Assembly: GCA_965649115.1 (NCBI GenBank)
Contig: CBFGJN010000020.1
Span: 1-28,559 of the forward strand
Source: a candidate division WOR-3 bacterium
GTDB taxonomy: Bacteria > Hydrothermota > Hydrothermia > LBFQ01 > DSFT01
DNA: 28,559 bases
Direction: 5' to 3'
The notes below the pieces were generated by a model, which was not told where the DNA came from, did no database searches, and saw nothing but the letters and a program-made list of their open reading frames with translations. Each line of letters begins with the position of its first letter. The first letter of the stretch is position 1. Both the position numbers and the translations under genes were made by a program. Below, piece after piece: positions 4,152 to 22,788 of this stretch.

Positions 4152-5129
4152 TTAACAAATTGGTTCAAGAGGGTTTTTCTTTATACATTCCTTGAATTTA
4201 TTTGCTCTTTCAAGTCTTAAAATCTTTCTACTTTCTGCTGTTTTCCATCTTTCAATTTCGTAATCTCTCCAAGGATTAAATGGTTTAAGCTGATTTAATG
4301 AAACGAAAGTCATATAACTACTTGCAACCTTAAATCTCTTTGATGTTAAAGCTTCTTCCTTTATAATTTTTACACCAATTTCCATAGATCTGTTTCCGAC
4401 ATAATTTATTCCCAAATAAAAATGTAAAATATCACCTACTCTAACTGGACAAATAAAATCAAATTCATCAATTGAAGCAGTGAAAGTTGGATTTTTTGCA
4501 TATTGAACTGACAATATACCTCCAAGTTCATCAACCTTTTCAAATAAATATCCTGCAAACATCATATTTGAATATATAGTTTCGTACGGAAAAACAAGTT
4601 TAGCAGAATATAGACTATAAGTTGGTTTTCTGCTTATATCTAAATCATTTATTTCCATTCTTCTATTTTTTATTCTTTCTAATCTATATGCTCTTCTTTT
4701 TAATGCCCATTCATAAATTAGTTTTTCTTTTTGGTCTTTGGGAACGATTTTAACATTTAATTTTCTTGGTTTTCCATTTTCGTCAACAGCAACATATCCA
4801 AAGTGAGCAAGTGTTACTACTTTTAATTCATCATTATTTGTTCTTTTAAAAACAGTGACACCGACTTCCATGGAGCTATTAAATACTGCTTGAACTCTTG
4901 AACGAAAAATTAATGTATCTCCACTATTAACAGGTTCTACAAAGTCAACACTATCCATAGAACCCATTACAACAGGTCCTTCTGAAATTTTACTTGCTGA
5001 TAATGTTGCTGCTTGACTTATAAAATATAACATTTTTCCACCAAAAAGTGTTCCAGCGGGGTTTATTAATTGTGGAAATACATACTCATAAATCTCAAAA
5101 ATTGTTTCTGATATTGATATTTCTTTCAT
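4152..5129 (-). CDS. Tandem hot-dog acyl-CoA thioesterase (YciA-like double domain)
   Basis: NPAGTLFGG...DSVDFVEPV...SSMEVGV and a second copy, MMFAG...DEFDFICPV...RSMEIGV. Confidence 0.85.
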   Translation of the reverse strand: MKEISISETIFEIYEYVFPQLINPAGTLFGGKMLYFISQAATLSASKISEGPVVMGSMDSVDFVEPVNSGDTLIFRSRVQAVFNSSMEVGVTVFKRTNNDELKVVTLAHFGYVAVDENGKPRKLNVKIVPKDQKEKLIYEWALKRRAYRLERIKNRRMEINDLDISRKPTYSLYSAKLVFPYETIYSNMMFAGYLFEKVDELGGILSVQYAKNPTFTASIDEFDFICPVRVGDILHFYLGINYVGNRSMEIGVKIIKEEALTSKRFKVASSYMTFVSLNQLKPFNPWRDYEIERWKTAESRKILRLERANKFKECIKKNPLEPIC

Positions 5130-6055
5130 AGTAATCTATCAACAATGGCTTGTAATTCTCTAATGTGATTGGCACAATTATTTAATAGATTTTTTTCTTC
5201 TTGATTTAAATTAAATTCAACAATTTTTTCAATACCATTTTTTCCAAGGACAATTGGAAGACCAATTACAACATCACTTAATCCATATTCTCCTTTTGTT
5301 AAAACACTTGCAGGAATTAATTTTTTACTATCTTTTAATATAATTTCTGCCATGTATCCTACTGCATCTCCTGGTGCAAAGAAAGCAGATGTTCCCATTA
5401 GTTGAACAATTTCTCCTCCTCCAAATTTCGTTTTATTAACAATTTCTTTTATTGCTTCTTCATTTAATAGTTGAGTTATGGGAATTCCGTTTACTGTTGT
5501 CCATCTTATTAATGGTATCATATCATCACCATGAGTTCCAAGGACAATTCCTTGAACTTCAAATGGTGAAACATTTAGTTTTTGAGCTACAAAATAACTT
5601 AATCTTGCACTATCTAAAACGCCTGCTTGTCCTATAACTCTTTCTCTTTCAAACCCTAAAATCCTATATGCTGCATAAGTCATGGCATCAAGAGGATTAG
5701 TAACAACTATTACTATTGAATTTTTAGCATAAATTTTTATTTTTTCACAAACATCTTTTATAATTTTAAAATTTACTTCAATTAAATCATCTCTTGACAT
5801 TCCTGGTTTTCTTGGAACTCCCGCAGTTATAATAACAACATCGGAATCCGCAATATCTTGATAATTACTTGAACCTTTAATTTTACCTGAAAATCCAATA
5901 ATTTGGCTTGCTTGACCGAGGTCTAATGCTTTACCTTTTGCTAATCCTTCTACAATGTCTATCAGTACTACATCTGCTAAATCTTTATATAGAATATAAC
6001 GAGCACATTCTGAACCAACATTTCCCGAACCTATAATTGAAACTTTAAATCTCAT
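5126..6055 (-). CDS. mdh: Malate dehydrogenase (LDH-like)
   Basis: IGSGNVG, TAGVPRKPGMSRDDL, VTNPLDAM, GVLDSAR, GTHGDDM. Confidence 0.95.
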   Translation of the reverse strand: MRFKVSIIGSGNVGSECARYILYKDLADVVLIDIVEGLAKGKALDLGQASQIIGFSGKIKGSSNYQDIADSDVVIITAGVPRKPGMSRDDLIEVNFKIIKDVCEKIKIYAKNSIVIVVTNPLDAMTYAAYRILGFERERVIGQAGVLDSARLSYFVAQKLNVSPFEVQGIVLGTHGDDMIPLIRWTTVNGIPITQLLNEEAIKEIVNKTKFGGGEIVQLMGTSAFFAPGDAVGYMAEIILKDSKKLIPASVLTKGEYGLSDVVIGLPIVLGKNGIEKIVEFNLNQEEKNLLNNCANHIRELQAIVDRLL

Positions 6056-6056
6056 A

Positions 6057-6130
6057 CGGGGACGACGGGACTCGAACCCGCGACCTCCGGCGTGACAGAC
6101 CGGCGTTCTAACCAGCTGAACTACGTCCCC
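6057..6130 (-). tRNA. tRNA-Asp(GTC), CCA not encoded
   Basis: GGGGACG/CGTCCCC acceptor stem, anticodon arm CCGGT-CTGTCAC-GCCGG, GGTTCGAGT T loop, G discriminator. Confidence 0.97.
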
Positions 6131-6253
6131 TTGTTAAGTGCCAAAATTTTAAAGCATAAAATGATTTATTGTCTTTATAGGGAAATTTAAAAGTATTGCT
6201 TAATTTTTCTGCTTAAATAAATACATATTTTTCCGCTTTATAATTTTCAGACT

Positions 6254-7111
6254 TTGTTATTTATCTTATTTGGGCAGTTTTCAAATTATGGAGGTGAAGT
6301 TTATAGAGTTGAACTAAATGGAAAATTAATAGGCCTTGGTTCATCATTTTATAATTTTAAGGATGCTTCAAGTGTTTTTTATAATCCAGCAAACTTAAAT
6401 TATTCAAATGAAAGTATCTTTTTTGGATTTGGTCTTTTATATGAAGGGATAAATGCAGTTTCATTATCTTATAAGTTTAAAAATAAACCTTATGGGATTG
6501 GTCTTTATTTAGTTCTAACAGATAATATAGAATTTACATCCTTACCAGATACTACAAGACCTCCAAGTGAAGATAACAAACCTTACATAACATCAATTGA
6601 AAACTACTTAGCAAGTGCTTTTTATTTATCAGGTGGTTATAAGAACTTTGGAATAAGCGCTAAAATTCTTTATCAAGGAATAAGTAATTACAGAGCTTTT
6701 GGATTTGGTTTTGATTTATCTACAAATTTAAAAAACTTTTCAATAATTCTAAGAGATTTTCTTCCAAGTTTATTATATTGGAATAGTAAAACTACCGAAT
6801 TTATACCTCCAATGATTATTTTAGCAACTTATAGTCAATATAAAAATTTTCTTTTATCAACAAGCTTAGATTTTTCCACCATAGAAAATAGAAACTTTGA
6901 TAGATTAATTTCTTTTAATAATTTTTCTATGGGATTTAGATTTGGTATTGAATATAATTTGAATGTTGTTTCATTAAGAGGAGGTTTTAGGAATTCAAAA
7001 CCTTCTTTTGGTTTTGGCATAAATTATAAAAATTATTCAATTGATTATGGCTCTTTTTATCATTCTGATTTAGGTCTTACTCATAGAACAAGTTTAACTA
7101 TTAAATTTTAA
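6254..7111 (+). CDS. PorV/PorQ (UPF0164)-like outer-membrane beta-barrel
   Basis: DASSVFYNPANL, FGFGFD, FGIEY...LRGG, alternating beta pattern, C-terminal THRTSLTIKF; TTG start 9 nt after TATAAT. Confidence 0.75.
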   Translation: MLFILFGQFSNYGGEVYRVELNGKLIGLGSSFYNFKDASSVFYNPANLNYSNESIFFGFGLLYEGINAVSLSYKFKNKPYGIGLYLVLTDNIEFTSLPDTTRPPSEDNKPYITSIENYLASAFYLSGGYKNFGISAKILYQGISNYRAFGFGFDLSTNLKNFSIILRDFLPSLLYWNSKTTEFIPPMIILATYSQYKNFLLSTSLDFSTIENRNFDRLISFNNFSMGFRFGIEYNLNVVSLRGGFRNSKPSFGFGINYKNYSIDYGSFYHSDLGLTHRTSLTIKF

Positions 7112-21734: not shown

Positions 21735-22065
21735 TTTAAATAGAAAAGAAATATTAGCAATTAGTTTATTTTTTCTGTTCGTTTTAATTGGTGAAATTGG
21801 GCTTTGGTACTACAAGGTTTTAAATCCTCCAAAATATGAAGTTTTAAAAAAACCAAATGAGGAGATTATTTTAAAGGATTCAATTAAGAAAGTTAGTTTA
21901 AATAACTCTTCTTACGAAGAACTTCTTCAAGTTCCTGGTATTGGACCAACACTTGCAAAAAGAATTATAGAAAACAGACCATATGAAAAAATTGAAGACT
22001 TAATGAAAGTTAAAGGAATAGGAAAAAAGAAATTTGAAAAAATTAAAAATTATTTTGAACCTTAA
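21727..22065 (+). CDS. comEA: ComEA-family helix-hairpin-helix DNA-binding protein
   Basis: TM helix, then VSLNNSSYEELLQVPGIGPTLAKRII and LMKVKGIGKKKFEKI; ATG 21727 overlaps the rfaE2 stop. Confidence 0.85.
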   Translation: MLDLNRKEILAISLFFLFVLIGEIGLWYYKVLNPPKYEVLKKPNEEIILKDSIKKVSLNNSSYEELLQVPGIGPTLAKRIIENRPYEKIEDLMKVKGIGKKKFEKIKNYFEP

Positions 22066-22077
22066 AATTTTACCTCT

Positions 22078-22159
22078 GCGGGAGTGGCGGAATAGGAAGA
22101 CGCGGCGGATTTAGGATCCGCTCCCGAAAGGGGTGTGGGTTCAAGTCCCACCTCCCGCA
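22078..22159 (+). tRNA. tRNA-Leu(TAG), CCA not encoded
   Basis: GCGGGAG/CTCCCGC acceptor stem, GCGGA-TTTAGGA-TCCGC anticodon arm, long variable arm CCCGAAAGGG, GGTTCAAGT, A discriminator. Confidence 0.97.
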
Positions 22160-22164
22160 TAAAT

Positions 22165-22788
22165 ATGAAATTATTAATTTTTGACTTTGATGGAACACTT
22201 TTTGATACATCTCTTGGTTTAACACTTTCCATAAATGAATTAACTTCAAAGTACAATCTTGAAAAGTTAGATAGAGAACAAGTTAAGAAAATTGTAGGAG
22301 GAGGCATTGAATCAACCTTAAAGGAAATTTTTAAAGAAAAATTTCATAAAGGCTTAATTGAAGAATTCAATAGTATTTACAGAAATTATATGTTTGAAGG
22401 TCTTGTCCCTTATACAAACATATTTGAAACAATAAGGAAAATAAAGGAAAATTTAGAAGTTAAAATTGTTATTTTTAGCAATAAAACGAAATTTTTCATA
22501 ATTGAAATTTTAAGGAAATTTGATGTTTATCATTTGTTTGATGAAATAATTACAATTGATGATGGATATAAAAAACCTGATACGAAGGCTATTGATTACT
22601 TAATAGAAAAATATGAAGTTAAAAGAGAGGATATTTTTATAATTGGTGATAGTTGCTACGATATTGAAACTGCAAAAATTTCAAATGTGAAAAGTATTTT
22701 CGTTAGTTGGGGATTTGGAGAGAACTGCTTTGCTGATTTTGTTGTAAATGAACCGAATGAAATATATGATATAGTAGCTTCAAAATAG
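22165..22788 (+). CDS. HAD-family phosphatase (phosphoglycolate phosphatase-like); start revised to ATG 22165
   Basis: IFDFDGTLFDT, FSNK, KKPD, IGDSCYD, VSWGF; the GTG at 22135 lies inside the tRNA. Confidence 0.9.
   Translation: MKLLIFDFDGTLFDTSLGLTLSINELTSKYNLEKLDREQVKKIVGGGIESTLKEIFKEKFHKGLIEEFNSIYRNYMFEGLVPYTNIFETIRKIKENLEVKIVIFSNKTKFFIIEILRKFDVYHLFDEIITIDDGYKKPDTKAIDYLIEKYEVKREDIFIIGDSCYDIETAKISNVKSIFVSWGFGENCFADFVVNEPNEIYDIVASK

Follow-up and report, generated by a model that had tools for sequence, protein, structure and literature searches.

Maturation of tRNA 3' ends probably releases mRNAs with almost no leader in a hot-spring bacterium of Candidatus Hydrothermia (WOR-3), and we describe this here for the mRNA encoding malate dehydrogenase (mdh) and an acyl-CoA thioesterase, whose first start codon stands a single nucleotide after tRNA-Asp. 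The DNA in question, referred to below as the window, is a stretch of 28,559 nucleotides (nt), contig C20 of a metagenome-assembled genome (MAG) that we call G000, and the tRNA-mdh unit lies on its minus strand. The genome comprises 1.85 Mb in 99 contigs, with 27.6% G+C and an estimated completeness of 94.5%. The junction between tRNA-Asp and mdh is one instance of a gene organization found across the genus, in which tRNA genes lie directly against the start codons of genes that encode proteins.

Reading along the minus strand, the unit opens with the extended -10 element GCTTTAAAAT (6146..6155), which lies 15 nt upstream of G1 of tRNA-Asp and consists of the consensus promoter element of this genome, CTTTAAAAT (6154..6146), together with the preceding G at 6155; a weak -35-like sequence, AAGACA, is found at 6175..6170. 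The 74-nt tRNA-Asp(GTC) that follows (6057..6130, 68% G+C) was identified both by ARAGORN, which assigned the anticodon GTC, and by the Rfam model RF00005 (72.2 bits against a gathering score of 29, covering model positions 1-71 of 71). It ends in ...CGTCCCC and the discriminator G73 at 6057, with no CCA encoded 3' of it, and one T at 6056 (position 74), the presumed cleavage region, is all that separates it from the mdh start codon (ATG, 6055..6053). Neither a Shine-Dalgarno (SD)-like tetramer at -17 to -5 of this ATG nor a TAnnnT hexamer in the preceding 20 nt (tcgagtcccgtcgtccccgt, which is tRNA sequence) was found, and mdh falls outside the class of promoter-driven leaderless genes (-10 element ending 5-11 nt before the start), its -10 element sitting upstream of the tRNA. 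The initial annotation of the window, which had described a -10 box, tRNA-Asp, a single T and ATG with neither CCA nor ribosome binding site, was right in every particular.

The gene product is an LDH-like bacterial malate dehydrogenase of 309 residues (5126..6055, stop included; minus strand) with Ldh_1_N and Ldh_1_C domains. It scores 385.3 bits against TIGR01763 (cut-off 351.85), its residues 2-301 matching positions 1-301 of the profile, and 251.8 bits against the L-lactate dehydrogenase model TIGR01771, under the cut-off of 303.55. As residue 2 aligns to the first position of the TIGR01763 profile, the start codon is correctly assigned, and there is no alternative ATG, GTG or TTG start among the first 20 codons. 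The second gene of the unit encodes a double hotdog acyl-CoA thioesterase of 325 residues (4152..5129, minus strand), in which a domain search found two copies of 4HBT; its ATG overlaps the mdh stop codon by 4 nt (ATGA), an arrangement that marks it as the predicted, translationally coupled second cistron after mdh. A minimum free energy fold of the leader, the tRNA and the first 40 nt of mdh, in which the acceptor and T arms form, was uninformative on access to the AUG (z-score 0.23), and a generic scan of the window for sigma-70 promoters and terminators returned 12 sites versus 12.9 in shuffled sequence, i.e. no excess.

The extent of this layout was assessed from the distance between each tRNA and the next start codon, a genome-wide check that the initial annotation had proposed and that came out in its favor. 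ARAGORN found 45 tRNAs, 32 of which have a start codon opening an open reading frame (ORF) of at least 30 residues within a few bases of the 3' end. At about 20 of the 45, pairing of T(-1) with A73 led ARAGORN to overextend the tRNA by 1 nt at both ends, and the spacers were measured instead from the tRNA ends given by the Rfam model. Measured in this way, 0-5 nt separate N73 from the start codon at 27 of the 45 tRNAs (0 nt at one tRNA, 1 nt at eight, 2 nt at seven, 3 nt at six, 4 nt at two and 5 nt at three), and longer spacers of 7 nt (one tRNA), 9 nt (two), 10 nt (one) and 14 nt (one) were also recorded. The start of an ORF of at least 100 residues lies within 0-5 nt of 1.9% of 200,000 random genome positions and of 21 of the 45 tRNA 3' ends (binomial tail 3e-24; 22 of 45 with tRNA-Val(cac) added), so the abutment of tRNAs and start codons exceeds chance.

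Pfam domains were detected in 25 of the 32 tRNA-adjacent ORFs, and in many the alignment begins at profile position 1-3 and residues 1-6, among them L31, L33, L19, Ndk, RdgB/Ham1, HAD, phosphoribosyl pyrophosphate (PRPP) synthetase, HMGL-like, FMO-like, GcvP and mdh. GlmS, with the N terminus M-C-G-I-F-G, is also tRNA-adjacent, as is aconitase, and the partner genes are largely housekeeping genes (ribosomal proteins, Ndk, GlmS, PRPP synthetase, mdh). An SD-like tetramer at -17 to -5 is present at only one of the 32 junctions and an -10 box of the gene's own at one, leaving 30 with neither. The base at position -1 of the start codon is T in 28 of the 32. None of the 45 tRNAs has an encoded CCA, and at position 74, 29 have T, 12 have C and four have A, with G absent. 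An upstream ORF could accommodate an SD sequence or allow translational coupling; a tRNA can do neither.

Several individual junctions deserve separate mention. At tRNA-Arg(ccg) on contig C6 and tRNA-Ser(cga) on contig C31, the TAG stop codon of the upstream ORF is completed by G1 of the tRNA; the frames that end in this way are open for 599 and 188 residues, and the next start codon follows 3-5 nt after the tRNA, giving a mitochondria-like succession of ORF, tRNA and ORF without free bases. At about 20 of the 45 tRNAs the T before G1 pairs with A73 or G73, which extends the acceptor stem to 8 bp. On contig C16 (14896-16520) a 516-residue ORF has a TTG start 1 nt after tRNA-Pro(cgg) and Helicase_C at residues 20-150, lacks a helicase N-terminal domain and is kept in a second genome of the genus, G001, at 63% identity. 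Possibly this is a helicase that has been truncated or split, its front half having been displaced by the tRNA. Finally, tRNA-Gly(ccc) on contig C9 and tRNA-Arg(ccg) of G001 have a -10 element (gcTTTAAAAT) right after or overlapping the 3' end, with an ATG 6-7 nt further on, and these two cases may be intermediates between the own-promoter and the abutted states. Gene callers and tRNA finders mis-set boundaries at such loci, as the 1-nt error of ARAGORN illustrates, and start prediction based on SD sequences would be expected to fail at tRNA-abutted genes.

A start codon at the very 5' end of an mRNA would be nothing unusual for the ribosomes of this organism. The promoter motif CTTTA[AT]AAT occurs 1088 times in the genome and 17 times in the window (5.6 expected), and its -10 element is composed of A+T only. 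In a crude set of ORFs (longest ORFs rather than gene-finder calls), which makes the shares that follow approximate, 326 of the 1366 ORFs that reach 150 residues or more have a candidate start 5-11 nt beyond the end of the motif, with modes at 7 and 9 nt; a looser -10 pattern adds a further 208 ORFs, and 381 have an SD-like motif. Since about one-quarter of the larger ORFs thus have a -10 element that lies 5-11 nt ahead of the start, initiation without a leader is routine in this organism. Starts in the strict leaderless set include TTG (46 of 326) and GTG (11 of 326), both of which occur at tRNA junctions too, and T occupies position -1 in 69% of the leaderless and 45% of the SD-led ORFs. Upstream of 32 of the 45 tRNAs this motif is again present within 40 nt, either 7-11 nt (16 tRNAs) or 14-16 nt (13 tRNAs) from the start called by ARAGORN, and it is this proximity that makes the tRNA 5' leaders very short. 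The tRNAs that lack an upstream motif are mostly located inside tandem arrays or right after an ORF.

Comparison with relatives places the arrangement in one genus. tRNA-Asp stands directly before mdh in all five genomes of the genus, with the single T as spacer in four and 6 nt in the fifth, so that synteny, a further point on which the initial annotation had suggested looking, is maintained. In the sister genus, mdh has no tRNA before it and carries a TATAAAAT box 10 nt before its ATG; in the order's next family the mdh ATG follows 8 nt after the end of a TACAAT box, and more distant members of the class have AAGGAGG ahead of mdh. Counts of the pattern GGTTCRANTCC-N11-15-ATG, i.e. the end of a tRNA followed closely by a start codon, are 14, 10, 13, 20 and 10 in the five genomes of the genus, 2 and 1 in the sister genus, and 0-8 per genome in the other 194 genomes of the phylum that were sampled. 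The abutment trait marks this genus.

Two genomes were compared at the level of single junctions. In G001, whose proteins are 53-86% identical to those of G000, 43 tRNAs were found and 30 examined, and 15 of these have the same isoacceptor followed by the orthologous ORF, with spacers of 0-9 nt; some junctions differ between the two genomes. In G005, from the sister genus (47 tRNAs found, 30 examined), only two tRNAs abut a start codon; the tRNAs have the same upstream promoter motif, and the downstream genes lie 19-37 nt off with a -10 box or SD sequence of their own. Three pairs illustrate the change: tRNA-Trp and L33 are separated by 32 nt containing AAGGGAGG in G005 and by 3 nt in G000, tRNA-Gly(gcc) and L19 by 37 nt containing GGGAGG and by 2 nt, and tRNA-Ala(tgc) and PRPP synthetase by about 32 nt containing the -10-like GTAAAAT and by 9 nt, with no SD sequence in any of these three spacers in G000. 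In this genus, then, the spacers have collapsed and the initiation signals have been discarded, a change that would be intelligible only if the tRNA 3' end has come to define the 5' end of the mRNA. The tRNA loci of G005 have about 51% G+C, compared with 27.6% for the G000 genome, a very large difference in composition within one family that coincides with the collapse of the spacers.

The enzymes available for such processing were searched for by profile. The initial annotation had ascribed the cut right after the discriminator to RNase Z, and this part of it did not stand: TIGR02651, with a cut-off of 293 bits, gives no more than 25.8 bits in this genome and no protein above that threshold in any of 31 related genomes, and a phmmer search with the short RNase Z-like metallo-β-lactamase proteins of relatives matched a PqsE-like ORF only. 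Four ORFs with an HxHxDH motif were considered as RNase Z and were assigned instead to a PqsE-like protein, a UPF0173 hydrolase, a GloB-like protein and a YtnP-like lactonase. RNase Z as the cutting enzyme is unsupported, though not disproved, as a MAG that is 94.5% complete does not prove absence. Neither RNase E/G nor a metallo-β-lactamase protein of the size of RNase J was found in this genome. RNase Y (632.9 bits) is the only broad endonuclease present among those searched for, and PNPase, a 3' exonuclease, is also present and could trim a short tRNA tail.

At the 5' end of the tRNA, gene content indicates that RNase P is replaced by the protein-only enzyme HARP. Neither rnpA nor the type-A RNase P RNA was found in this genome (type-B RNA, RF00011, was not searched for), and a HARP gene (PF08745, PIN_5) was identified at 150.8 bits, a result that speaks to gene presence only. 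Across the survey of 31 genomes, HARP is present in seven of seven members of this family and rnpA in none of the seven, and in the neighboring family HARP is present in none of 12 and rnpA in all 12. The family looks like a second bacterial lineage, beside the Aquificaceae, that would rely on HARP alone. The HARP operon (contig C2, 47359-48376) is itself led by a tRNA, tRNA-Lys(TTT), which is followed by a 136-residue lipoprotein-like ORF, HARP (179 residues) and Obg.

For the 3' end, the initial annotation had called for confirmation of both rnz and cca, and only the second was borne out. Two class-II nucleotidyltransferases with a PolyA_pol head are encoded, one of 286 residues (contig C24) that comprises the head domain only and one of 460 residues (contig C16) that adds RNA-binding and HD domains. 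Neither reaches an NCBIfam equivalog cut-off. A split pair of CC-adding and A-adding enzymes has been described for Aquifex, and the two nucleotidyltransferases found here may be such a pair.

The anatomy of the junctions, their extent and conservation, the lack of SD sequences and own promoters, the leaderless promoters and the genes for HARP and CCA-adding enzymes are all read directly from the genome sequences. From these we infer where the transcript would be cut and that the cut product would be translated. The promoter GCTTTAAAAT would drive a single transcript that begins with the tRNA and continues into the protein-coding operon of mdh and the thioesterase. HARP would generate the 5' end of the tRNA, and an endonuclease would cleave the transcript at the discriminator or immediately 3' of it (positions 73 to about 78), which would yield two products. 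One of these would be the tRNA body, to which the nucleotidyltransferases would add CCA; the other would be an mRNA with its start codon 0-5 nt from a 5'-monophosphate end, to be read by the leaderless route that about one-quarter of the larger genes already appear to use. An option that dispenses with RNase Z would be for an endonuclease to cut within the U-rich spacer and for an exonuclease to trim off 1-5 nt before CCA is added.

RNA-library evidence was sought in Logan contigs of hot-spring metatranscriptome runs, with small word shares. In three runs, each from a different study, contigs of a 93-95% identical relative extend across the junction of mdh and tRNA-Asp (X2, 5189-6093; X3, 4900-6115; X4, 5874-6122), DNA carry-over being possible. 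The contigs break inside the tRNA and their loose ends resemble tRNA-Asp of other organisms, so the points at which they stop say nothing about the start of transcription; the lack of contig cover at 6175-6276 likewise carries no evidential weight. We infer co-transcription of tRNA-Asp and mdh from the layout, with which the bridging contigs are weakly compatible.

Contigs that span the junction would be seen equally if the transcript were not cut before translation, i.e. if ribosomes read a tRNA-mRNA chimera in which the tRNA serves as a stabilizing, structured 5' cap, and if each transcript were destined either for translation or for maturation through a cut inside the ORF and subsequent trimming by a 3' exonuclease. 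The failure to find RNase Z and RNase E/G and the presence of PNPase are also in keeping with such a scheme. We nevertheless consider it unlikely, since the AUG would have to be used 0-5 nt from a G+C-rich acceptor stem with no SD-like tetramer at 31 of 32 junctions, since the SD sequences or -10 boxes that the same gene pairs have in the sister genus have been lost in this one, and since the spacers fit the short-leader range implied by the promoter-to-start distances of the genome; moreover, either the tRNA or the mRNA would be wasted from every transcript, for 27 tRNAs. A quite different and still less probable account is that the arrangement arose neutrally as an AT-rich lineage with a compact genome was streamlined, the genes being expressed and the arrangement being unselected and without regulatory coupling. 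The low G+C content and small size of the genome fit this account, as do the higher G+C content and longer spacers at the tRNA loci of the sister genus and the junctions that differ between G000 and G001. It concerns the origin of the layout rather than its mechanism, however, so that the genes would still need to be translated without an SD sequence, and both the retention of 15 of 30 junctions at 53-86% protein identity and the largely housekeeping nature of the partner genes argue against it.

Two further explanations apply to the mdh start itself. A promoter of mdh inside the tRNA would give a primary, triphosphate-ended leaderless transcript, and there is precedent for its parts, as promoter-driven leaderless genes are common here and tRNA-Gly(ccc) does have a -10 box overlapping its 3' end. 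The 20 nt before the mdh ATG contain no TAnnnT, as at 31 of the 32 junctions overall, and a tRNA of 68% G+C is a poor place for an A+T-only -10 element, which together make an internal promoter very improbable. The last explanation, that the start codon is mis-assigned or the junction an artefact of assembly, might be raised for any MAG of 99 contigs, and it is hardly credible here: the TIGR01763 alignment begins with residue 2 on the first profile position, and the junction is present in five independent genomes and in RNA-library contigs from three studies, so that this explanation is already effectively refuted.

The release of near-leaderless mRNAs by tRNA maturation has points standing against it as well. 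With no recognizable RNase Z, the model lacks an enzyme for a precise cut, and RNase E/G was likewise not found. Close spacing alone could reflect streamlining, because the genome is compact overall, with 364 of 1188 same-strand ORF pairs lying within -10 to +5 nt of each other. Seven of the 32 tRNA-adjacent ORFs have no Pfam match and some may not be genes, the leaderless and SD shares are approximate, as noted, and the RNA data, being contigs, cannot show the 5' or 3' ends of RNAs. The proposal of the initial annotation that excision of tRNA-Asp yields an essentially leaderless mdh-thioesterase mRNA is accordingly retained in substance and altered in its enzymology: the genome-wide layout, the leaderless promoters, the conservation in the genus, the sister-genus spacers and the CCA-adding genes favor excision, and RNase Z as the enzyme is unsupported.

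That annotation had also suggested that expression of an oxaloacetate-linked enzyme is coupled to processing of tRNA-Asp. The other tRNAs have partners without any cognate amino acid logic, and mdh of the sister genus has no tRNA and a promoter of its own; because the other tRNA-gene pairs show no cognate pattern, the idea was set aside, and the association of Asp with oxaloacetate looks coincidental.

A broader reading of the same data seems to us possible without being probable, and we put it forward tentatively. It holds that a free-living thermophile genus independently evolved mitochondrion-like punctuation as a main mode of expression for about 27 operons, using the tRNA promoter and an endonuclease other than RNase Z. 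These housekeeping operons, about 27 in number, would have lost their own promoter or SD sequence, and a single cut would create both the tRNA 3' end and a 5'-monophosphate leaderless mRNA. If this is true, the output of central-metabolism and ribosomal-protein genes would be tied to tRNA synthesis.

The window contains a second instance of the layout, on the plus strand. A variant of the -10 element, CCTTAAAAT (22060..22068), lies 9 nt upstream of tRNA-Leu(TAG) (22078..22159), identified by ARAGORN and the Rfam model, and a 5-nt spacer, taaat, separates A73 of this tRNA from the ATG (22165) of a 207-residue ORF (22165..22788). Pfam profiles identify the product as a HAD-family phosphatase, the alignments beginning at residue 4 for HAD_2 (position 1 of that profile) and at residue 1 for Hydrolase.

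On the other side of the tRNA-Asp promoter, a divergent -10 element, CTTTATAAT (6236..6244, plus strand), lies 9 nt before the TTG (6254) of a 285-residue ORF (6254..7111, plus strand) that has no Pfam match and serves for comparison as a leaderless gene of the usual promoter-driven kind. Two promoters thus stand back to back in the 123-bp intergenic region, one for this leaderless ORF and one for the tRNA-mdh unit. The element CTTTAAAAT is also part of a repeated element present in dozens of copies on many contigs, often at contig ends, in which it is accompanied by an A/C-rich stretch and a GGGGGG...CCCCCC hairpin; this is probably an element resembling miniature inverted-repeat transposable elements or repetitive extragenic palindromes, and probably breaks the assembly.

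A full-text search of the literature, with subscription journals and supplementary files outside its reach, returned no report of tRNA-punctuated leaderless mRNAs in bacteria. If our reading is correct, we would know of no earlier example of a free-living bacterium in which tRNA excision, and not a promoter or SD sequence, fixes where translation begins for dozens of core genes, including mdh, aconitase, GlmS, Ndk, PRPP synthetase, L19, L31 and L33. It would provide a natural test of bacterial ribosomes on 5'-monophosphate leaderless mRNAs generated by processing, and would point towards a tRNA 3' endonuclease that acts independently of RNase Z, in a lineage where HARP replaces RNase P. The sister genera would then form a before-and-after pair, from SD- or promoter-led to punctuated genes, and a model for the origin of mitochondrial punctuation.

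Co-transcription of tRNAs with a downstream protein gene is familiar from the thrU-tyrU-glyT-thrT-tufB operon of Escherichia coli, which is transcribed from a tRNA-type promoter; there the tufB ORF lies about 100 nt downstream of the tRNAs and is initiated internally with its own SD sequence. The spacers described here, in contrast, are 0-5 nt long and have no SD sequence. Leaderless mRNAs driven by their own promoters are treated in passages of PMC3848588, PMC4681348 and PMC9031893 for Actinobacteria, Deinococcus-Thermus and archaea, and the genes described here resemble those in the passages cited in that the start codon lies at or near the 5' end, AUG, GUG and UUG are all used, and a major share of genes is involved. 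They would differ in that the 5' end of those mRNAs is the triphosphate of a transcription start, whereas here it would be processed and carry a monophosphate. A section of PMC9031893, listing Giliberti 2012 and Krishnan 2010, states that leaderless translation in E. coli is favored by a 5' phosphate and by a start codon near the 5' end. Processing can also make leaderless mRNAs in E. coli, where, according to a passage of PMC3848588, MazF does so; an endonuclease cut would create the leaderless 5' end in both cases. MazF, a stress toxin, cleaves RNA at ACA and the resulting end is a 5'-OH, whereas the cut proposed here would be constitutive, positioned by tRNA structure and linked to maturation.

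The closest analogue of this layout is found in animal mitochondria, whose tRNA punctuation (Ojala, Montoya and Attardi 1981) is described in part of PMC10941002. In both, tRNA genes abut protein genes at a distance of zero to a few nucleotides, with no SD sequence and (as predicted here) no leader on the mRNA; a protein-only RNase P makes the 5' cut (predicted to be HARP here), CCA is added post-transcriptionally, and, as at two loci of this genome, stop codons are completed by the first base of the next tRNA. The differences are equally clear. Our subject is a free-living bacterium with a 1.85-Mb genome and hundreds of promoters rather than one polycistron per strand, its SD-led genes coexist with leaderless ones, its RNase P is predicted to be HARP (PIN_5) and not PRORP, and no homologue of RNase Z/ELAC2 was recognized in it. 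Most of its tRNAs, unlike those of animal mitochondria, lie not between ORFs but at the 5' end of a transcription unit, directly after a promoter.

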